A DNA stretch of 64,000 bases from Candidatus Thorarchaeota archaeon. Lineage in GTDB: Archaea; Asgardarchaeota; Thorarchaeia; Thorarchaeales; Thorarchaeaceae. The stretch spans positions 1 to 64,000 of the forward strand of contig CAVSBO010000003.1 in assembly GCA_963726195.1 (NCBI GenBank). Reading direction: 5' to 3'. Under the pieces are notes generated by a model. That model was not told the DNA's origin. It saw only the letters and a list, made by a program, of their open reading frames with translations, and did no database searches. A program made the position numbers and the translations under genes. Each line of letters begins with the position of its first letter. The first letter of the stretch is position 1. Shown here piece by piece: positions 42,985-61,804 of this stretch.

Positions 42985-44172
42985 CTAGCTTGTTTGCTGA
43001 TTCGTTGACTTCACGAAGAGTTCTGCCGTCATCCTGAACAAGTAGTCAACACCTTGACCGCTCATGCACGATGTTTCTACAAAAGCCACAGGGTACAGCT
43101 TCTCCCCTGAACCTAGTTTCGCCGCAATGTCACTTGCGAGCTTCAGTCCCTCTTCTTGTGACACGGGTGTTTCTCTGTCGACAAGGGGCGCGCTTGCTCG
43201 AAGGTCGGTCTTGTTCCCGACAATGACAAGTGGTGTGCGTGGTCGCGCGGCCGTTGTGCTTTCCTTAAGCCAGAAATCGATGCTCTCGAAGGACCAGCGG
43301 TCAGAAGTACTGTACACGATGATGATCACATCGGTTCCCTGATAGAAGGCCTTTCTCGTTACTCTAGATACAGAAGCAGCATCAAATGACCAGACCTGCA
43401 ACCTTACCATGTACTCATCGAGTTCAACTACCTTCTCTGATACATACGGCCTCTTTTCTGCCTCGGCACCCGGTTCCAGCGGTTTCAGTGCTCCCTTCTG
43501 GATCAGACATGACTTACCAACGCCCTCTTCACCCAGGATCAGGGCTTTCGCGATTACTTCTGTCTTTGGTAGTCCGGTCGATAGAGAAGCTCTTTCACCT
43601 GAAACGCCCGAGACCTCAGGCGAGGCTCCCTCTGGTATGGCTGTTCGAAATCGAGGGGCACCAACTATCTCTTCGGTCCCTTCAACATCAATCTTGATTC
43701 TGCTTTTCTCAGGAACCGAACCAGAGAAGCTCTTGGGTCTAGACGCGAGAAACGAGTCACTCAGCGATTCCACGACGCTCAGTGCCTCTTCGACATCACG
43801 ATACTCAATCCCTGAAATCTCGCCTTTCGGCTCAGCTTTGACCGCGTCGGGAGCGACGGCCTCTGACAGATTCTTGGCCTTGCCCGGCGGGGGTTTCTTC
43901 TTCGCCTTCTTTTTGGCTGCATTCGCGGTTGATGCCCTTCTAGCGGCGAGAGCTTCTGATTTCTCTGTTGGTTCCAAGTCTGAGACTATCCTCTTCACCT
44001 GGGGCACACCTAGTTTCTGAAGAGTCTCTTTGGCGACGCTCGGAGCTAGCTTCTTGCCCGCCTGCCGGAAGTAGCCCTCGAGGTCTGAGCAGACGTCATC
44101 AAATGACCTGTTCCTTGTTGGAATCTTCCGCTTTAGGACGCCCTTATCGCGGACCTCAACGTAACTGGGCAA
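42985..44172 (-). CDS. Rab/Ras-like small GTPase domain with long N-terminal extension
   Basis: G1 GEEGVGKS, RLQVW, FYQGTDVIIIVY, G4 VGNKTDL, G5 ETSC; G3 degenerate. Confidence 0.85.
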   Translation of the reverse strand: MPSYVEVRDKGVLKRKIPTRNRSFDDVCSDLEGYFRQAGKKLAPSVAKETLQKLGVPQVKRIVSDLEPTEKSEALAARRASTANAAKKKAKKKPPPGKAKNLSEAVAPDAVKAEPKGEISGIEYRDVEEALSVVESLSDSFLASRPKSFSGSVPEKSRIKIDVEGTEEIVGAPRFRTAIPEGASPEVSGVSGERASLSTGLPKTEVIAKALILGEEGVGKSCLIQKGALKPLEPGAEAEKRPYVSEKVVELDEYMVRLQVWSFDAASVSRVTRKAFYQGTDVIIIVYSTSDRWSFESIDFWLKESTTAARPRTPLVIVGNKTDLRASAPLVDRETPVSQEEGLKLASDIAAKLGSGEKLYPVAFVETSCMSGQGVDYLFRMTAELFVKSTNQQTS

Positions 44173-53594: not shown

Positions 53595-54358
53595 CTACTT
53601 GATTGCCGAGTAGATCTCTTGCATATGTTGAGTGAATTCACTTTCAGGATGCTTCAGACACACAATGTATCTACTACCTGCCTCAATCAGTATTTGGAGC
53701 ATAGGAATAATAGTGACCACTTTCGTCTTGAACTTCCGCTCAACTTCTTCGATTATGGCCTTGTCTTCGTAGATACTGGGCTTCTTGTTGATTATGATGC
53801 GGGTATCCGGCACCTGCAGCTTGTTGGCAACGCTCAAAGTCGCCGCTGTCCCCAGCAGATCTTGTTCATCGATTCTGGCCACTACGAGTAGAAAGTCCGT
53901 TGTCGCCATCGATAACAGAGTTTCGCGGTCGAGACCCGGATGGGTGTCGATGATTAGGTAGTCCAAGTTCTTTGCTTTGATTACTTCGCTGAACCCGTTC
54001 TTAAGGTCGCTAACTTCGTAACCTTCCCTGAGAATGCGTGTAATATCGGTGGCGCTCATCGAACTTGGAATCAAGAAAGCTGTCCTCGCTTTATTCCGAG
54101 TTCGCTGGTCATATCCATGCATGCATCCTTGATGTCACACTCCCCTCGCAAGTAGTCATTGAGTGTGTGCTTGAGCTTCTGTCTGCCCAGCCCAAAGATT
54201 ACATGGATACCCGGTGATGCTACGTCGGTATCCATTACGGCGACTCTCTTACCATCGAGGGCCACAACTGCAGCGAGATTCGCCGCTATGTTTGATTTTC
54301 CAGTTCCCCCTCTGAAGCTGTGAATACATACTATCTTGCATGCTATATCAGCGCACAT
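53595..54358 (-). CDS. MinD/ParA family ATPase, RGG variant (one frameshift near 54075)
   Basis: HSFRGGTGKSNIAANLA, VMDTD, YLIIDTHPG, IIINK. Confidence 0.9.
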
Positions 54359-55646
54359 GCTGCATCACCCTATCCGTTTTATATTCGACATAGTTGCCCA
54401 ACGACTTGAGCACTTCAAGTATACGAGCCGCAGGGATTCCCGTTTTGTCAGCTATTTCCTTCAGCGAATATGCTCCTGTGCAGTAACGCCAGACGGCATC
54501 GACTACGCGATAGTCCTTATTATTCATTCCTGCGATTTCTAGGAAGGCTGCGAAGCGCTGGTCCCTTTCCGACATAACAGGAAACAGCTTTGCGATCCTC
54601 ACTATGCCTTTTGAAATGAGGTGCGCCAACACCTCTGTCGTCACTTCTGTTGTGAAGCCCGTCTTCTCCACTATGTCTGCAATTGTATTCTTCTGATCCA
54701 CCGTATTTAGTACAACTATGGCGCTAGCACGCAAGCTGTCCTGTAATCCGGCTAGAATCCTACGTGGGCTGTCCAGCACCTTGGTCACTGGAAGCAAAGG
54801 CACAACAACGTCATAGTCATAGAAGGCGGTTGACTCTGCCAAGTATGTTGGCAGAACCTTCTTCATCTTTGTTAGCTCGAGTGACATGACAGCTGCAAGG
54901 ACCGGCTCCACTATCCTCAGAAGCTCGCCGTTTGGTCTAGCTGCATCGACGACGAAGATGCAATACACTTCATTGTCTGACCTGGTAACGAAGAAGCACG
55001 TCATCGGATCTAGGCTGGTGTGTACGAGAGTGAGGCTCTTCTCCGCGGCCTTTGGACCTGAGCCTAGACCGTTCAAGAGGTCGAGCAAAGCTTCCATCTC
55101 ATAAGTTCTCAAGTTGGATGCTAGGACAAACCCATCATTCGTGAGTGCTGCTCCTCTCATCACACCTGGACTGTTCTCCGCCTGCGCCATAACGACCTTC
55201 AACTGTCTCAAGTCATCGGCGGGCAGGAGACCTATCTTGTAGCGTCTTGCCAGACCGGGAATCCCATCAAATCTCTGGAGCGTAGCCTCTACAGTATCTG
55301 TGAAACCCTTGAACGCTCGGGGATCGCTAGTCTCACGTTTGAGTTCTGTATAGAAAGTGCTCACAAACTGATCTGCCAGGTCGCGAAGGATTACGCGATA
55401 TATCTCGGCGCTGTCTTCCTGTAGGATTAGCGCTACGAACAATAGGTCGCCCTTGCGCAACCAGACGAACTTGTTAGAAGCAAAGGATACGACCCTGATT
55501 TGTTGCTCACTTACCTGCTCCGCTAGAGAACCCATAGCAGAGAGAAAGGCCGCAACCAATTCGTCTAGCTTCTTTGCGCCGCTGACACTGTAATGAAACA
55601 GAGGGATTCCTGTTTCTCGCAGAATGATAACTTCCTTTACCAACAC
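54348..55646 (-). CDS. Longin-roadblock-wHTH-wHTH protein (NPRL2/GATOR1-like)
   Basis: Longin start IILRETGIPLF..AAFLSAM; roadblock-like GAALTNDGFVLASNL; two wHTH (TIADIVEKTG..LISKGIV; CTGAYSLKEIADKTG). Confidence 0.75.
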   Translation of the reverse strand: MLVKEVIILRETGIPLFHYSVSGAKKLDELVAAFLSAMGSLAEQVSEQQIRVVSFASNKFVWLRKGDLLFVALILQEDSAEIYRVILRDLADQFVSTFYTELKRETSDPRAFKGFTDTVEATLQRFDGIPGLARRYKIGLLPADDLRQLKVVMAQAENSPGVMRGAALTNDGFVLASNLRTYEMEALLDLLNGLGSGPKAAEKSLTLVHTSLDPMTCFFVTRSDNEVYCIFVVDAARPNGELLRIVEPVLAAVMSLELTKMKKVLPTYLAESTAFYDYDVVVPLLPVTKVLDSPRRILAGLQDSLRASAIVVLNTVDQKNTIADIVEKTGFTTEVTTEVLAHLISKGIVRIAKLFPVMSERDQRFAAFLEIAGMNNKDYRVVDAVWRYCTGAYSLKEIADKTGIPAARILEVLKSLGNYVEYKTDRVMQHVR

Positions 55647-55744
55647 AAAACCCTCAGCGAGCTGAGAACGACTTCTGAGCCGCTCCCACTGCTATTATAC
55701 CTTGTCAGCGCAATATCCGCATACCAAAACGGGCCCAGGTTCAG

Positions 55745-56647
55745 TTAGACGTTCTCGTGGGTTAGCCCAGTGACTTCTACGAGTTTCCAGCTGACAGCAT
55801 TGCCAAGCTTCCCGAGAACATCGTGCAGTTTCTCAGCAGTGACTCCAATCTTTTCGCCTATTTCGACGAGGGATTTCTCGCCATTGCAGAGCGGTCGTGC
55901 TCGATTCAGGACCTGATTGTCCCGCTTGGGGATGCCAACCATGTCGAGGTAGATGTCGAACCGAGTATCGCTTGTCTGGATAACGGGACACATCTTGAAG
56001 ATCTTGACCACGCCCCATATCACCAGATACTCGACAACCTCTGTTACTTGTTCAATCTCAAGGCCGGATGATTGACTAACATCGTGAATGGAGGTTTTTC
56101 CGTCAATTGCCTCTGTTATCTTGCTGCCAGTGCTGCCAAAATCGCGATGCAGCTCATCCAAAAGCCCCATCGACTTCACCGCCACATCGAACGCTTCTTG
56201 GTTTATCATTGGGACAACAAATGAGCTAAGACTCGATGCTACCGCAAGCACTCCTTCATAGAACGCGAAGGACCTCTTGACCTCATCAGCGAAGCCCTTG
56301 AAGGAATCCTCGAAGAGAACGTCGGCCTTAATCTCCTCTCGGTATCTGGTGAGGAACTTGTGGCTGAGGTCTCTGAGCACAGCCCTCAGGACGCGCTTCT
56401 GTGCACCTGACCCGACCAGAAATATGAACAGGACCTCTTCCTCGGTCTCATAGAGGATTTCCGAGCCTTCAAACGACAAACTCTGTATTGAACGCTCTCC
56501 AAACTCAGCCGCGAAGCTGGAGATAGCACTAAGGAATCCAGACAGCAGAGTGTCGAGCTTCCTGGTCTCATCGGGTGAATAATGAAAGAGAGGAATTCCT
56601 CCTGCCGTGAGAACCATGAACTCGTGCACTTTGAGCGGTCCGGTCAT
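55745..56647 (-). CDS. Longin-wHTH-wHTH protein (NPRL2/GATOR1-like), paralog of the downstream gene
   Basis: VLTAGGIPLF..SGFLSAISSF longin; IDGKTSIHDVS..LVIWGVV; CNGEKSLVEIG..VSWK. Confidence 0.78.
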   Translation of the reverse strand: MTGPLKVHEFMVLTAGGIPLFHYSPDETRKLDTLLSGFLSAISSFAAEFGERSIQSLSFEGSEILYETEEEVLFIFLVGSGAQKRVLRAVLRDLSHKFLTRYREEIKADVLFEDSFKGFADEVKRSFAFYEGVLAVASSLSSFVVPMINQEAFDVAVKSMGLLDELHRDFGSTGSKITEAIDGKTSIHDVSQSSGLEIEQVTEVVEYLVIWGVVKIFKMCPVIQTSDTRFDIYLDMVGIPKRDNQVLNRARPLCNGEKSLVEIGEKIGVTAEKLHDVLGKLGNAVSWKLVEVTGLTHENV

Positions 56648-56799: not shown

Positions 56800-58410
56800 T
56801 TGGGTATGCTTGAGTACAGGGAGTTCCCCCTAAAGAAAGCCACATATTTCGTGTTCGTTTCCCCGGCAATGGCTTACTACATTTACACGATCATCCGACT
56901 GAGTAACCAGGTTCTTTTTCCGACGTTTGGTCGGCAGAATCTGCAGTTCCTAGGAATAGGTCTTGTTGCAGCCGTCGTGACGTTGCTCATTGCTGGATTC
57001 GTTCTTGATCGCATTGAGAGAGGATATGTCATGACAACGGTCGGCGCGATTGTCCCTCTCTTCATAGGTATTGTCGTCGCGCAGATTGGATCTCCGAGCG
57101 CGTTTTCTCCCGGTCTTGAAATGCTATTCACAGTGTCCGTCTTTTCTGGTCTCGCACTCGCATTGCTTAGCTGGATAGTCCAACTCAGCAAGGCGATCGT
57201 GGCCAAGTATCGAGGGAGGGTCGTCGCGGCTTTTATGGCATTATCCTTGATTTTGTTCGCTATCTACTCAGCCCTTCAGTCAAATGGCATAGAACTGTAT
57301 ACCTCCGGAGTTCCAATAATGGAAATCATAGCGATTGTCGCCATATTAGCGCGTCTTGCGTTCAAACCCTGGAAAATGGAATACAAGCGGCTTGCAGTTC
57401 AGGAAAAAGCATTCTCGTATTTCGTTCCGGTCATGATTCTCATGGCTGGTCATATGCTATGGTACTTCGGCACGCAGTTAGGTATAATCAAAGTGCTTCA
57501 AGATGCCGGGTACACGACTTACCAGTCTTTGGGTCAGTATTCAGGTCTCGCACTCTATGAGCCAGTCTTGATGGTTGTAGGTATTATCGTGTCAGGTGCT
57601 ATTGCTGACAGCAGAGGAAGAAAGAGCGCTTTCACGATGGGGGTGCTTCTGTTCGGTCTGCTAACGATACTCAGTCCGATTGCTGTAGAAGCGGTCCAAC
57701 TTTACGCGGCTTCTCTCTTGGTTTCCGAACGGTTCATTGAGGGATTCTTGCTCGGACTTCTTCTATTGCTCATTTGGCCCGAAATCGGCTCGCCGAGGAC
57801 CAAGAGCCGAAGGACTGCTGCCGTTTGGGTTTTCTTTGCAGGGTACGTAGCCCTCTTCTGGGCCGTGTCATTTCAGGTATCATTTGTTGTCAATTGGCAT
57901 GCTCCTGTCGAACTGCGAGTGTTGGGCACGCAGATAGCGATTCTTCTAGCAATGGTTGCTCTCTACAGGTCGGCGCCCATTCCTGAGGTTCTTGGAAACG
58001 AAGTGGAGATGGAAGAGCTGAGCCTCGATTTCGACGAACGTCTTGTGAAACAGACAGTCGAGCAGTATGTCGAGTCGGGCGAATTCGAGTCGATTCGAAG
58101 CCAGATCGATATCGCCGGCATGCAAGAGCTCAGCGATAAGGACATGCACGAGATAATTGGTCCGGACTTCGAAAAAGTTCTCCCGTTGCGCAAGATTCCG
58201 GGCATTGGCGCGAGGATGGAAGAAAGACTTCGAGAAGCCGGTTATGAGTCAGCGGCTCAGCTCGCTGGGGAGACTCCTCAAAGATTGTCATCAAAGGTGA
58301 AGGGGCTCAGTGAGGCGCAGGCCGACAAGATTCTCGGAAGTGTTCGTGAAGCGGTTAGGGATGCCATGAAGTCAAAGCCTGACAAAGACGACGAGAAGAA
58401 AAGACCCTGA
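56800..58410 (+). CDS. MFS-fold membrane protein fused to C-terminal HhH domain
   Basis: About 12 TMs, GFVLDRIER and GAIADSRGRK motif A; LRKIPGIGARMEERLREAGY...GLSEAQADKI. Confidence 0.78.
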   Translation: MGMLEYREFPLKKATYFVFVSPAMAYYIYTIIRLSNQVLFPTFGRQNLQFLGIGLVAAVVTLLIAGFVLDRIERGYVMTTVGAIVPLFIGIVVAQIGSPSAFSPGLEMLFTVSVFSGLALALLSWIVQLSKAIVAKYRGRVVAAFMALSLILFAIYSALQSNGIELYTSGVPIMEIIAIVAILARLAFKPWKMEYKRLAVQEKAFSYFVPVMILMAGHMLWYFGTQLGIIKVLQDAGYTTYQSLGQYSGLALYEPVLMVVGIIVSGAIADSRGRKSAFTMGVLLFGLLTILSPIAVEAVQLYAASLLVSERFIEGFLLGLLLLLIWPEIGSPRTKSRRTAAVWVFFAGYVALFWAVSFQVSFVVNWHAPVELRVLGTQIAILLAMVALYRSAPIPEVLGNEVEMEELSLDFDERLVKQTVEQYVESGEFESIRSQIDIAGMQELSDKDMHEIIGPDFEKVLPLRKIPGIGARMEERLREAGYESAAQLAGETPQRLSSKVKGLSEAQADKILGSVREAVRDAMKSKPDKDDEKKRP

Positions 58411-58421
58411 GTGACTATCGG

Positions 58422-59354
58422 TCAGCTTCTCGCTCCCTCGGTCCCAGCAGAATAGTATGCCAATCCGGTTCCTCCGAGAAGGTCCGTGTTGTTCATCTGC
58501 TTGCCGCAATTAGCACAGGACAGCACTATCTTTGGTTCCTTTGTTGCCTCTCCGCAGCCTTTGCAGAGCAGTTCTACATCAATGATACTTAGTTCCGAAA
58601 CCTTTGCTGGTTGCTTGCATCGCTGGCAATGAACCTCTGTCAGGTCGTCGACAATCACGGTTTGAGTCTTATTGCCGCACTTTGGGCAATACACCAGATA
58701 GACCTTGTAGATATCACTACTTCCGCACGAAGGACAAGTGAGGTGCAGAGTTACCTCCGTGCCGCCACACTGTTTGCATTCGACCTTTCGTCCATAGGTC
58801 TTGGGAACCAAGCGCCCTGCGCGTTCGAGATCCTTAAGGAGTCTCCAGACCTCCTCCTCATCGGCTCCCAAGTACTCAGAAGCCTGAGGGTACCTCGCTG
58901 TCGCCTTAAGGATGTGCTTGGGAATGAGTGCGGGCACCCTACCCGATTCCATGTCTTCAACAAGCCTCGTCACATGCGGGTTAGAGAGCAGTTCGTCACC
59001 CGAAGTCTCTGCGATTAGTTCCTGCAATAGCAGGAAAGCCCGGGTTATCTCTGTGTCCCAAGTGCTGCTGTTGAAGTTAATCCGGCCTACGAGTCTTAGT
59101 AGGTTTCTCTCAACGACTGAGGGTTCATCGCTGTCATCAAGCAACACTGCAATGCAGTTGGGCGTATCAAGGTATGATACCATCAGTCCCTTCGCCAGCT
59201 TTGTGTAACCCACTTTTGCCTCTTGGTTTATACCATGGCCCATGAAAATGACTATGGCATCTTCGGTCGTGAGAGGATTGTTCTCAGGGTATGATCTGCC
59301 TAAGAGGGGACCAAGAGTTTGGTCCCACCAAATGGCATAGATGGCCTTAGGCAT
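58422..59354 (-). CDS. uDENN/longin-like domain fused to TackOD1-like wHTH + multi-zinc-ribbon domain
   Basis: IYAIWWDQTLGPLLGRSYPE start; RYP..LLKDLERAG.L; six CxxC pairs. Confidence 0.72.
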   Translation of the reverse strand: MPKAIYAIWWDQTLGPLLGRSYPENNPLTTEDAIVIFMGHGINQEAKVGYTKLAKGLMVSYLDTPNCIAVLLDDSDEPSVVERNLLRLVGRINFNSSTWDTEITRAFLLLQELIAETSGDELLSNPHVTRLVEDMESGRVPALIPKHILKATARYPQASEYLGADEEEVWRLLKDLERAGRLVPKTYGRKVECKQCGGTEVTLHLTCPSCGSSDIYKVYLVYCPKCGNKTQTVIVDDLTEVHCQRCKQPAKVSELSIIDVELLCKGCGEATKEPKIVLSCANCGKQMNNTDLLGGTGLAYYSAGTEGARS

Positions 59355-59471
59355 CGGTCCGTCTCCTCAACAAGCATTAGTCTGAAAGGTCCCGGTTTTG
59401 CTCAGAGCGCGAGGTCTTAATAGCGTTCACCTTACGGACATTTCTTCGAGACCGAGGGCAACGCCACCGAA

Positions 59472-59482
59472 GAGTATAAAAC
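59472..59482 (+). promoter_or_regulatory. TATA box of the Ig-like surface protein gene
   Basis: GAAGAG-TATAAAA (BRE-like purines plus TATA) about 60 bp upstream of ATG 59542. Confidence 0.5.
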
Positions 59483-59541
59483 GGGCCCCCAGTTCAAACG
59501 GCCGCTCACCGCAAACAAGACCAATGGCAGATGGTGCATGA

Positions 59542-61284
59542 ATGCTTTCGCAGCGTCAGGGTAGATTCATCGTTGCTACAATAGTGCTCTGGCTGGTCCT
59601 ATCGCCTTACGTTGCGTGGTCCTCTGGCCTTGTGACGAACAACCCTCGTCCAGAGCACCGGTTCATGACTGCGGCTCCTACCATAGACAGTCCTCCTGAC
59701 CAGACCTATGAGAATGGCACAATCAACAAGAAAATCGTGTGGACCCCCTTAGATCCCTCACCGAAGAACGAAACCGTAACTAGGAATGGTACGGTGTATC
59801 AGTCTGGACCTTGGTCAAATGGGTCCATTGTGGTTCTACTAGACCATCTCTACTCTCAGAAGCTTGTCACAACCCTCCCGATCACATTCTCGTTCGTATG
59901 CAAGGTTTTCAACGTGAAGAACGAGTCTGTGTCCGACGAGGCCCTCGTAACGTTGATTCCGGATACAACACCGCCTATCATATCGGCTCCAGCCAACTTC
60001 AGCTACGAAGTCGGCAGCTTCGGACACAAGATTACTTGGAACATTACTGAGGCGAACCCCAGTTTCTACAACGTAACTAGATTGTCAAACGAGACCACCA
60101 GCAACCATACTGTGTTGCAGTCAGGACACTGGGATGGCAGAAACATCACAATCGGCGTCGATGGACTCAATGCAACCCATTGGTACATCTACAGTCTTTT
60201 CGTAAATGACACCCTCAAACACAATGCTACTAGCGCCGTGAACGTGACTGTATACTTAGACGTGACTTCGCCGACTGTCACCCATCCGGGTAATCTGGCT
60301 TATGAGTTTGGCTCAAAAGGGCACAAGATCACCTGGCATGTCTATGACAGCAATCCCAAGAACTACACGGTCAAGATAATCACAATCTATACCAACTCAA
60401 CCTACGGCAATGTATCCGCTTTTCACTGGCTTGCTAACATCAGCATGGTGCCGTGGACCTTCACCGACCCCAAGGGCAATAATGTATCGATAGACGTGGA
60501 CTCGGTCTTCTTGGGGAACTACAGCTTCAGGATACTGCTCTTCGATAAGTATGGACATAATAACAGTGACTCGCTCAATCTCACGATCTACAAGGACCTT
60601 CGGGCTCCCGTTGTGACTGCAAATACGCATCTCACATACGAGGAAGGCTACAAAGGCAACTATCTCAACTGGAGCGCAGATGAGAGCAACCCACGCTTGT
60701 ACAACCTTACCCGCGACGGGGTCGTGCTGATGAACGGCACATGGAGGGGTGAGAACCTGAGCGTCAACGTAGATCGCCTCTCAGTAGGTATTCATATTTA
60801 CAACATGACTCTCACTGATTTCTTCTACCAGAGAACAGTAACACTCACGACCGTGAATGTGACCCCTGACGCGCATGTTCCGACCATCAGCGATATCGTG
60901 GTTATCCAGTCGTTCACTACGTCCTATGCGGACAACCTGACAGTGCAGGCCTATTGTTGGGATATCAATAACATCAGCAGTATAAGAGTCGAATGGGGGA
61001 TAGACACCAACCACACCTCGAATGTCACAATGCACTCTCAGGGAAGAAGTCTGTACTCAGCTTCACTAGGCGAGTATTCTGTAGGGTCTGTTGTGCTGTA
61101 CCGGATCATAGCAGTCGACAATTCGTCTGTGAAGAACGTTCACACTACTCAGTACATGAGTGTCACTGTCACGTCCATGATACGGGAGCAAAGCCCTGCT
61201 CTGCTTTGGGGCTCACTCCTGGCCTTGGGCATGCTATCATCTTTCATCATCGCGATCCTGTACTTCAGGACAAAGCCAAGATAG
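59542..61284 (+). CDS. Secreted TM-anchored Ig-like repeat glycoprotein, paralogous to 30628-32526
   Basis: Signal peptide, repeated D..P.I..P....YE.G..G..I.W...(D/E).NP..Y units, C-terminal TM. Confidence 0.8.
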   Translation: MLSQRQGRFIVATIVLWLVLSPYVAWSSGLVTNNPRPEHRFMTAAPTIDSPPDQTYENGTINKKIVWTPLDPSPKNETVTRNGTVYQSGPWSNGSIVVLLDHLYSQKLVTTLPITFSFVCKVFNVKNESVSDEALVTLIPDTTPPIISAPANFSYEVGSFGHKITWNITEANPSFYNVTRLSNETTSNHTVLQSGHWDGRNITIGVDGLNATHWYIYSLFVNDTLKHNATSAVNVTVYLDVTSPTVTHPGNLAYEFGSKGHKITWHVYDSNPKNYTVKIITIYTNSTYGNVSAFHWLANISMVPWTFTDPKGNNVSIDVDSVFLGNYSFRILLFDKYGHNNSDSLNLTIYKDLRAPVVTANTHLTYEEGYKGNYLNWSADESNPRLYNLTRDGVVLMNGTWRGENLSVNVDRLSVGIHIYNMTLTDFFYQRTVTLTTVNVTPDAHVPTISDIVVIQSFTTSYADNLTVQAYCWDINNISSIRVEWGIDTNHTSNVTMHSQGRSLYSASLGEYSVGSVVLYRIIAVDNSSVKNVHTTQYMSVTVTSMIREQSPALLWGSLLALGMLSSFIIAILYFRTKPR

Positions 61285-61286
61285 AA

Positions 61287-61804
61287 TCACTGCTGTCCTA
61301 GCATTGAGAGAATGTCCCGGTGCATTAGCTCCCTGTTTGAGACCGTGAGCTCCAGTAACCTAACATCGGGACGCTCTTTCACTTCTTGGACAAAGCTACC
61401 TCCCTTTTGCTGAAGTGTGCCAAGGACTCTTCGCATCTCAAGGCATCTCCTGACCTCAGGAGCGAAGTTCGGCGAGGTCAGTTCCATGCTAGCAATCTCA
61501 TCTATGACTATTGACTTGCCGCTCTCTCTCGCGTGTCTGAGAACCGGCACTATGATGCGTTCAATGTCAGGCACGTTGACAACGTACCGGCCTATCCGTG
61601 GCCCTGACTTGGAGTTGAGTCAGCAAGCACGCCTTGTTGACCGTCTGTTGTACTGATACTGAATCCTGTCCTTTCAGTTCCACGCCGAATCTCGCTGGTC
61701 CAGAATCCTTCGGCGCGCGACTCTCCAAGTACATCGATTACCTTTCTGATTACAGTACTCTTTCCAATGCCCGGTCGTCCCGTCAAGAGTATGTTCTGCT
61801 GCAT
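61287..61804 (-). CDS. NTPase_1 (THEP1/HCR-NTPase) family (one frameshift)
   Basis: LTGRPGIGKST, GFWTSEIR, IVIDEIASME. Confidence 0.88.

Follow-up and report, generated by a model that had tools for sequence, protein, structure and literature searches.

A longin domain fused to a TackOD1 module in Thorarchaeota, a possible non-catalytic adaptor

Introduction

Longin-longin GTPase-activating protein (GAP) complexes (GATOR1, folliculin and C9orf72-SMCR8) control nutrient signalling at the eukaryotic lysosome; NPRL2/Npr2 is the catalytic subunit of GATOR1/SEACIT, and C9orf72 is the non-catalytic longin subunit of the C9orf72-SMCR8-WDR41 Arf GAP. Here we describe a gene in a stretch of 64,000 nucleotides from a Candidatus Thorarchaeota archaeon (contig CAVSBO010000003.1, positions 1 to 64,000, hereafter the window) whose product, the longin-TackOD1 protein, joins a longin domain to TackOD1, a domain found in thaumarchaeal response regulators. 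According to a 2025 study, a GP motif is specific to the GAP-type longins C9orf72, SMCR8, FLCN and NPRL2 and absent from FNIP2, NPRL3, adaptins, TRAPP and DENND proteins; in C9orf72 the residues W33-D34 are essential, and the finger arginine is on its partner, not on C9orf72 itself (PMC12290439). TackOD1 has been described in stand-alone, REC-TackOD1 and REC-wHTH-TackOD1 architectures (REC, receiver; wHTH, winged helix-turn-helix), with a cysteine array of five CxxC and one HxxC (Galperin et al., PMC5847659), and arCOG06883, which holds TackOD1 proteins, occurs mostly in thaumarchaeal type IV pilus loci (PMC4858521). For Asgard archaea, the text of Liu et al. (bioRxiv 10.1101/2020.10.19.343400) reports 'NPRL2-like longin' proteins, including fusions to two-component-related domains. 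The longin-TackOD1 fusion is a variant of these known kinds, the Asgard NPRL2-like longins and the TackOD1 output proteins; two recent papers on Asgard structural prediction make no mention of the longin-TackOD1 family or of TackOD1.

Gene and domain architecture

The longin-TackOD1 gene is an uninterrupted open reading frame (ORF) of 310 codons at 58422-59354 on the reverse strand, as given by the ORF list and its translation, in a window of even base composition (~50% G+C). More than 120 protein clusters share its full length of 310 amino acids (aa) at 52-85% identity, so that it is a real gene; those clusters with a named source are nearly all from Thorarchaeota, and some are titled 'TackOD1 domain-containing metal-binding protein'. 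All 310 residues could be assigned to the longin domain, a linker or TackOD1, with the following features in window positions:

58422..59354 (-): whole gene of the longin-TackOD1 protein, 310 aa plus stop codon (ORF list, translation, full-length homologs)
58995..59354 (-): longin domain, residues 1-120, predicted as strand-strand-helix-strand-strand-strand-helix-helix (AlphaFold2, fold matches)
59307..59327 (-): W10-D11-Q-T-L14-G15-P16, the 'WD' and 'GP' motifs in the loop between strands 1 and 2 (conservation, spacing)
58905..58994 (-): predicted helical linker, residues 121-150 (model helices 119-122 and 126-136)
58785..58904 (-): predicted winged-helix core, residues 151-190, opening the TackOD1 match, with an acidic recognition helix at ~164-180 (Pfam, C-terminal model)
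58473..58784 (-): three putative zinc ribbons with six CxxC pairs, residues 191-294, at the wing position of the winged helix (invariant cysteines, strand-rich model)
58425..58472 (-): predicted closing strand, residues 295-302, then a disordered tail (models)

The best explanation of this layout, tentative as a whole, is a cytoplasmic protein of two modules, longin (residues 1-120) and TackOD1 (residues 151-302). The architecture is real and unusual; the function given to it here is a matter of inference. An earlier sequence-only reading of this DNA had proposed a uDENN/NPRL2-type longin followed by a TackOD1-like output domain. Its observation is confirmed, since the N-terminal letters and the six CxxC pairs that it cited were re-read correctly in the translation and the human NPRL2 peptide that it quoted corresponds to residues 10-29 of PDB 6ces_N; its domain assignment was right in substance and its interpretation is supported in part.

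The longin domain

The AlphaFold2 model of the protein, built on an alignment of 41 sequences, had a predicted local distance difference test (pLDDT) score of 86.5 and places its elements in longin order, with strands at residues 4-11, 15-22, 48-53, 56-63 and 66-71 and helices at 30-38, 78-89 and 99-116 (pLDDT 83-93). When the modelled longin domain was scanned against 48,161 PDB representatives (VIA-align), human NPRL2 came first (8fw5_B, Z 10.7, root-mean-square deviation 3.0 over 117 residues), followed by yeast Npr2 (8adl_S, Z 10.2), the alignments to these two spanning 116-117 residues and their identities being checked against the PDB sequences. A lokiarchaeal longin (8yqg_B) reached Z 10.1 against residues 1-120, and the further matches listed include AP-3 sigma, AP sigma/mu, FNIP2, FLCN, Lst4, DENND1A, VAMP7, Sec22 and SR-alpha. 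A Z of at least 8 was found for 26 chains, and nearly all of the 50 matches listed are longin or roadblock domains. The predicted structure thereby establishes a longin fold for residues 1-120, as the sequence-only reading had claimed for the N-terminal domain. The NPRL2 subclass is only suggested by the model, because scores within one Z unit are ties.

At the sequence level, Pfam gave no family match for residues 1-150, the first 30 residues found no named longin relative among PDB sequences, and an exhaustive search of residues 1-145 against 1.8 billion representative proteins returned six relatives only. The ESM Atlas yielded weak leads (0.80-0.81), one of them an Asgard cluster with NPR2 in 19% of its members.

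W10, L14, G15, P16 and P23 do not vary across the 41 homologs, in which D11 shows at least 90% conservation. Comparison with the PDB sequences shows that W10-D11-x-x-L14-G15-P16 is spaced identically to W33-D34-x-x-L37-G38-P39 of C9orf72, whose residues 29-48 read TFAYWDNILGPRVRHIWAPK, so that in this family, as in C9orf72, WD sits five residues ahead of GP. The stretch T13-L-G-P16...P23-E24 is likewise spaced as T18-L-G-P21...P28-E29 of NPRL2, and G15-P16, at the start of strand 2, holds the position of NPRL2 G20-P21 and C9orf72 G38-P39. The NPRL2 start pattern noted by the sequence-only reading is therefore genuine in its TLGP...PE part, which is shared at equal spacing. The accompanying label 'uDENN' did not stand, as a DENN core is missing from the protein and the GP motif, reported to be specific to GAP longins, is said not to occur in DENND proteins (PMC12290439); 'GAP-type longin' is the better term.

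The loop between strands 4 and 5 is shortened to four residues, D63-T64-P65-N66, and has no conserved arginine in the family. The catalytic GAP-type longins (NPRL2, FLCN and SMCR8) carry their arginine finger in the loop ahead of strand 5. In the PDB sequences, FLCN 157-176 includes L-A-R164-G and NPRL2 73-92 includes Y-S-R78-N, and by sequence alignment the domain appears to have no arginine finger where R78 and R164 fall. E82-R83-N84 was considered as an equivalent of NPRL2 S77-R78-N79 and rejected: R83 lies in helix 2, past an acidic stretch that follows strand 5, and since R78 and R164 precede strand 5 the likeness is probably coincidental. The invariance of both R20 and R83 is limited to the thorarchaeal family, and the nearest outgroups conserve neither. 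Asgard paralogs of ~362 aa carry a conserved A-R-G immediately ahead of strand 5, similar to L-A-R164-G of FLCN. Because WD and GP are kept and no finger arginine is conserved, the longin domain looks like a non-catalytic partner of the C9orf72 kind.

The TackOD1 half

Pfam TackOD1 (PF18551) matches residues 151-293 with E 1.1e-18 and 67.9 bits against a cut-off of 32, the sole such match in the genome. The six CxxC pairs (C193/196, 207/210, 223/226, 243/246, 264/267 and 280/283) comprise 12 cysteines, all invariant in the 41 homologs, and they reproduce the TackOD1 cysteine array with CxxC at the HxxC position. A winged-helix-like segment (residues ~148-190) is present in both AlphaFold2 models, that of the whole protein and that of residues 140-310 alone (pLDDT 91.1). 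The proposed TackOD1-like wHTH/zinc-ribbon module is thus borne out by the Pfam match, the winged-helix segment and the cysteine pairs.

Fold matches of the C-terminal model were with winged helices only and had Z<=4.3 (DsrD, SelB, TFE-alpha, Sso10a, ESCRT-II, Fur/ArsR and Z-alpha). As they align over model residues 16 to ~170, the model suggests an insertion of all three zinc ribbons into the wing, with the last strand probably rejoining the winged helix. The zinc-ribbon body matched no solved structure in the structural scan or with Foldseek, and a search with the C-terminal region returned its own family only.

The recognition helix starts with D-E-E-E and has a net charge of -3 here (family mean -4.5, range -8 to -2). 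Mean charges are -2.0 for the winged helix and -4.6 for the zinc-ribbon part, and the whole protein has an isoelectric point (pI) of ~5.1. Classical DNA binding by this half is doubtful, judging from the acidic recognition helix, and the nucleic-acid-binding output envisaged by the sequence-only reading is doubtful with it.

Distribution among Asgard archaea

The full-length protein is present in 20 of the 24 genomes sampled from its own thorarchaeal family, and more distant full-length relatives (24% identity) occur in two other families. A profile of the N-terminal domain matches strongly (E<=2e-43) in 63 of 77 genomes of the family, the 14 without one being mostly incomplete, and it matches in 213 of 301 Asgard genomes and 51 of 70 genera, often with several paralogs per genome. 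Most of these paralogs, from njord-, odin- and helarchaeal records, are 360-400 aa long and end in an ordinary wHTH, from which it follows that the longin type is widespread in Asgard archaea and the TackOD1 fusion a lineage-specific variant.

Other Asgard TackOD1 proteins have different N-termini. Those of genomes G029, G025 and G035 share another, mutually related domain (E 1e-12 to 1e-23), which matches the 300-aa and 432-aa longins of the window weakly (12-17 bits), so its assignment as a longin is a weak one; one 300-aa TackOD1 protein of G035 starts like the longin-TackOD1 protein, and the remaining ones begin with a coiled coil or a short segment. The recurrence of TackOD1 behind longin-like modules in Asgard archaea and behind receivers in Thaumarchaeota supports an output or effector role for it. 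The earlier wording that a longin replaces the receiver is accordingly a fair one, given TackOD1 after receivers (PMC5847659) and the weakly longin-like N-termini elsewhere in Asgard archaea.

Genomic neighbourhood

We compared gene order at 12 loci from ten genera of the thorarchaeal family. On the upstream side the order is RibA, an Fe-S protein, a THEP1-like nucleoside triphosphatase (NTPase), the divergent surface repeat protein and the longin-TackOD1 gene; beyond it come a convergent membrane protein with a helix-hairpin-helix (HHH) tail, a 300-aa and a 432-aa longin-wHTH protein, and a MinD/ParA-like ATPase. The elements around the gene are:

59542..61284 (+): divergent neighbour, 580-aa predicted surface repeat protein (adjacent at 11/12 family loci and also in G025)
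near 59470 (+): TATA-like box GTATAAAA on the side of the surface-protein gene
59416..59423 (-): TATA-like box CTATTAAG, the gene's own putative promoter, 61 nt upstream of the ATG (recurs upstream in relatives)
56800..58410 (+): convergent neighbour, 536-aa multi-pass membrane protein with a C-terminal helix-hairpin-helix (Pfam HHH_5, E 4e-9)
53595..56647 (-): longin-wHTH paralog pair (300 aa and 432 aa), then the MinD/ParA-like ATPase (synteny, weak Pfam)

The membrane-protein and 300-aa longin genes are adjacent at all 12 loci, the surface-protein gene at 11 and the 432-aa paralog at 9; three genomes have the paralog in another place or lack it, and in one the surface-protein gene is at a distance of 31 kb. 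The longin-wHTH pair has weak Pfam matches to Fuz_longin_1 and wHTH families, and 1775 bp separate the longin-TackOD1 gene from its nearer member (55745-56647). Twenty family genomes have the longin-TackOD1 gene together with the orthologs of the surface protein and the 300-aa longin, and three (G001, G005 and G012, the last 97% complete) have none of these genes; in G003 (83% complete) the surface-protein and 300-aa longin orthologs are found on two contigs, with no longin-TackOD1 match. In G025, which belongs to another family, the homolog is divergent to a surface-protein homolog (36-40% identity), and a gene like those of the pair is on another contig. The surface-protein pairing is the sole one that we saw survive deeper divergence, the link to the longin-wHTH pair not being seen in the two more distant lineages examined. 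Gene order within one family is weak functional evidence, because housekeeping genes are equally syntenic.

The CTATTAAG box recurs at a similar upstream distance in most of the 19 relatives examined, so that the longin-TackOD1 gene is a separate transcription unit. A search for an operator upstream of the gene found the TATA-like box only. In the spacer (59355-59541), the TATA-like boxes of the longin-TackOD1 and surface-protein genes stand back to back ~50 bp apart. The suggestion that the protein belongs to the same system as the longin-wHTH pair holds in part: the position by the pair is kept in ten genera, but the gene has its own promoter and does not adjoin the pair in the two more distant lineages.

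In the 580-aa protein, a signal peptide and a C-terminal membrane helix accompany about four tandem repeats of ~100 aa and dozens of NxS/T sequons; its repeat recurs in many giant proteins of related genomes (ORFs up to 4666 aa). At 7 of the 12 loci an extra gene of ~260-290 aa lies between the longin-TackOD1 and membrane-protein genes. It was considered as a GTPase and rejected, as the product is enzyme-like. Several genera have a conserved ~288-aa version that resembles a metabolic enzyme (putative), at L024:8155-9021, L025:10020-10904, L027:8023-8898, L029:8118-8987, L030:8077-8937 and L032:10011-10877, and L026 holds a different 260-aa gene instead.

Two genes of the window are split into two ORFs by a 1-nt deletion relative to the same-genus genome G002, those of the MinD/ParA-like ATPase (53595-54358, (-)) and of the THEP1-like NTPase (61287-61804, (-)); both are unbroken wherever they occurred among the family loci (245-254 aa and 170-184 aa). 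The longin paralog on contig 7 is a third gene that is split. These splits are either assembly indels or recent pseudogenes.

Links to GTPases and KaiC-like ATPases

The genome has at least 21 Ras-superfamily matches, and two paralogs of the longin domain lie near Arf-like GTPase genes. The first paralog (396 aa, contig 3 near 712.7 kb) overlaps by 19 bp the gene of a 290-aa Arf-like GTPase (Pfam Arf, E 2.5e-20); the two (contig 3, 712704-714748; L081:3704-5748), with a small B-box-like zinc protein ahead of them, form an operon-like longin-GTPase arrangement. The second (contig 7 near 41.4 kb, split into 206 + 184 aa) is on the same strand as the gene of a 467-aa Arf-like GTPase and precedes it by 2.6 kb. 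Within the window, a 465-aa ORF with a Ras-family GTPase domain (E 1.8e-20; 43021-43548, (-)) lies 15 kb from the longin-TackOD1 gene. A Rab-like GTPase cassette 5 kb away, beyond the window end, was rejected as a conserved partner, being common to the same-genus genome only.

In three Asgard lineages outside the protein's own family, a KaiC-like ATPase gene directly adjoins a related gene. The one in G025 is convergent with the longin-TackOD1 homolog, that in G029 follows a TackOD1 protein of the second N-terminal type at a distance of 17 bp, and that in G026 is ~30 bp downstream of a stand-alone 132-aa copy of this longin; the loci are L033:8194-9876, L034:9023-10982 and L037:9089-10221. On contig 7 (109055-111275; L047:6056-8276) a cluster encodes a roadblock protein (134 aa), a thioredoxin/KaiB-like protein (110 aa), KaiC (248 aa) and a truncated KaiC-like protein (210 aa); two Ras-like GTPase genes are found 2-4 kb away from it, and a WD40 protein adjoins it. 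The roadblock and KaiB-like proteins beside this KaiC did not match the longin profile of the longin-TackOD1 protein.

Proposed mechanism and alternatives

Our favoured reading, to which we give a probability of roughly 40%, sees the protein as a longin adaptor without catalytic function, linking an NTPase switch to a TackOD1 effector. We infer that the longin module would pair with another longin or roadblock protein, the candidates being an arginine-bearing paralog or the neighbouring longin-wHTH pair, and that the two would form a platform for the switch, most likely an Arf/Rag-like GTPase. The longin module keeps the two motifs, WD and GP, whose residues line the nucleotide-facing pocket in eukaryotic longin-longin GAP complexes. 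The state of the switch would be passed to the TackOD1 module, which may then engage a downstream partner, more likely protein than DNA. This reading is supported by the longin fold, the WDxxLGP motif, the missing finger, the paralogs near Arf-like genes and the acidic helix, and also by the TackOD1 Pfam match, the REC-TackOD1 precedent (PMC5847659), the weakly longin-like N-termini of other Asgard TackOD1 proteins, the spread of the longin type over Asgard genomes and the joint presence and absence of genes. A more specific version would make the protein an archaeal equivalent of the non-catalytic subunit in a longin-longin GAP (C9orf72- or NPRL3-like), working with an arginine-bearing paralog on an Arf/Rag-like GTPase and wired to TackOD1; we consider this version rather unlikely.

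Several results weigh against the adaptor reading. The GAP-type subclass is drawn from tied structural scores and a seven-residue motif; Pfam matched no named longin family, with the whole protein or with 25 N-terminal domains, and neither N-terminal profiles nor a single sequence matched a named longin among PDB sequences. The wider Asgard longin family has no conserved GP, reading GT, GA, GV or GI at that position, and the function of TackOD1 has been called 'obscure' (Galperin et al., PMC5847659). No small GTPase gene is conserved beside the longin-TackOD1 gene in the family loci, and neither this result nor the lack of a conserved finger arginine in the longin domain supports the link to GTPase signalling drawn in the sequence-only reading. 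With a promoter to itself, the gene forms no operon with the longin-wHTH pair, and since RibA, the Fe-S protein and the THEP1-like NTPase are equally syntenic, the synteny may reflect descent only.

The protein could instead be a one-component transcription regulator, in which the longin senses or dimerises and the winged helix and ribbons bind DNA, controlling the divergent surface-protein gene and perhaps itself. The winged-helix fold of the C-terminal half, with matches that include SelB, TFE-alpha, Sso10a and Fur/ArsR-type proteins, the output position of TackOD1 in response regulators (PMC5847659), the basic residues K185, R189 and K190 at the wing base, and the divergence from the surface-protein gene over a 187-bp spacer with back-to-back TATA-like boxes (11/12 loci and a second family) would all fit such a regulator. 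However, the recognition helix opens with D-E-E-E in place of polar or basic residues, and the acidity extends from this helix (mean -4.5) to the winged helix (-2.0), the ribbon body (-4.6) and the protein as a whole (pI ~5.1); the winged-helix matches are weak (Z<=4.3), many winged helices bind protein (ESCRT-II, cullin), and upstream of the gene no conserved element was found besides the TATA-like box. We therefore consider a DNA-binding regulator unlikely, if still a serious contender. A catalytic role for the longin domain on its own, as a self-sufficient GAP that supplies the catalytic residue for a small GTPase, is highly improbable: the GP motif, the NPRL2-like fold and the invariance of R20 and R83 in the thorarchaeal family would agree with it, but neither arginine is conserved in the nearest outgroups, R83 is in helix 2 and not in the strand 4 / strand 5 loop to which the alignment assigns NPRL2 R78 and FLCN R164, and this loop has only four residues.

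The genomic context bears on two further explanations, each of which we regard as distinctly unlikely. The protein might be an adaptor or regulator whose partner is a KaiC/RecA-type ATPase, not a small GTPase, and whose role is in the control of an envelope or pilus-like component, as the KaiC-like genes adjoining longin-TackOD1 (G025), TackOD1 (G029) and the stand-alone longin (G026), the occurrence of arCOG06883 mostly in thaumarchaeal type IV pilus loci (PMC4858521) and the standing of the surface protein as the most persistent neighbour would suggest. Yet no KaiC-like gene lies within 9 kb of longin-TackOD1 at the 12 family loci, the genome's one good KaiC homolog is on contig 7 in the roadblock/KaiB-like/KaiC cluster, and the adjacency, seen at 3 of ~13 distant loci examined, is possibly due to chance because KaiC-like genes are abundant in archaea. 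Alternatively the neighbourhood may have no functional meaning: the gene order would be inherited within one family, and the protein would act somewhere else, for instance as a scaffold that depends on zinc. Inherited synteny agrees with the conservation of unrelated housekeeping genes alongside, with the promoter that the gene has to itself, and with the separation from it of the 432-aa paralog (moved or absent in three genomes) and of the surface-protein gene (at 31 kb in one); against this, longin-TackOD1, the surface protein and the 300-aa longin are jointly present or absent in 23 of 24 family genomes, and the surface-protein pairing persists at 24% identity in another family. We rank the adaptor first, the DNA-binding regulator next and the KaiC or surface-structure role after it, the remaining weight falling on inherited synteny or a self-sufficient GAP.

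If the more specific version, with the protein as one half of a longin-longin GAP, is correct, the protein would be a hybrid signalling device, a eukaryote-type switch wired directly to a prokaryote-type output, and would show in what way longin complexes that regulate GTPases worked before eukaryotes. The family consists of a small, soluble and well-conserved Asgard protein, with the pocket residues WD and GP but no catalytic arginine, fused to a two-component output domain. It offers a tractable system in which to ask whether Asgard longins already pair asymmetrically (one catalytic, the other non-catalytic), which NTPase they serve and what TackOD1 binds. Should the protein prove to exert ordinary transcription control of the surface protein, its value would be smaller, that of a first functional assignment for TackOD1.

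Comparison with known systems

The C-terminal half resembles TackOD1 of thaumarchaeal response regulators (PF18551; arCOG06883) in its hidden Markov model match, in the cysteine-rich ribbons that follow a winged helix and in its C-terminal place, and differs from those proteins in having a longin instead of a receiver and six CxxC instead of five CxxC and one HxxC. Relative to NPRL2/Npr2, which give the best fold matches, the TLGP...PE spacing and the layout of a longin followed by a winged helix are alike, although the NPRL2 Z-scores tie with those of AP-3 sigma, FNIP2, Lst4 and an Asgard longin; the longin-TackOD1 protein has no arginine at the R78 position and no NPRL2-type C-terminal domain, and Pfam NPR2 (PF06218) did not match it at E<=1. 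It shares W-D-x-x-L-G-P at identical spacing and a longin fold (Z 7.5) with C9orf72 and, as far as the alignment tells, likewise appears to be without a finger arginine, but it has no DENN module, sequence homology is undetectable outside the motif, and the fold score is below that of NPRL2. The central DENN and downstream dDENN modules of DENN proteins are not present.

Among Asgard proteins, the longin-TackOD1 protein fits the description by Liu et al., whose text does not use the name TackOD1 (10.1101/2020.10.19.343400). Its longin is homologous to that of the ~362-aa Asgard longin-wHTH family (njord-, odin- and helarchaeal records P0127-P0155), with a pairwise E of 6e-10 and profile values down to 1e-29, and the two share the signature M-P-x-x-I...W-D...G...Y-P-E...H. 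The ~362-aa family differs in carrying A-R-G in the strand 4 / strand 5 loop and in ending with an ordinary wHTH, where the protein described here ends with TackOD1.

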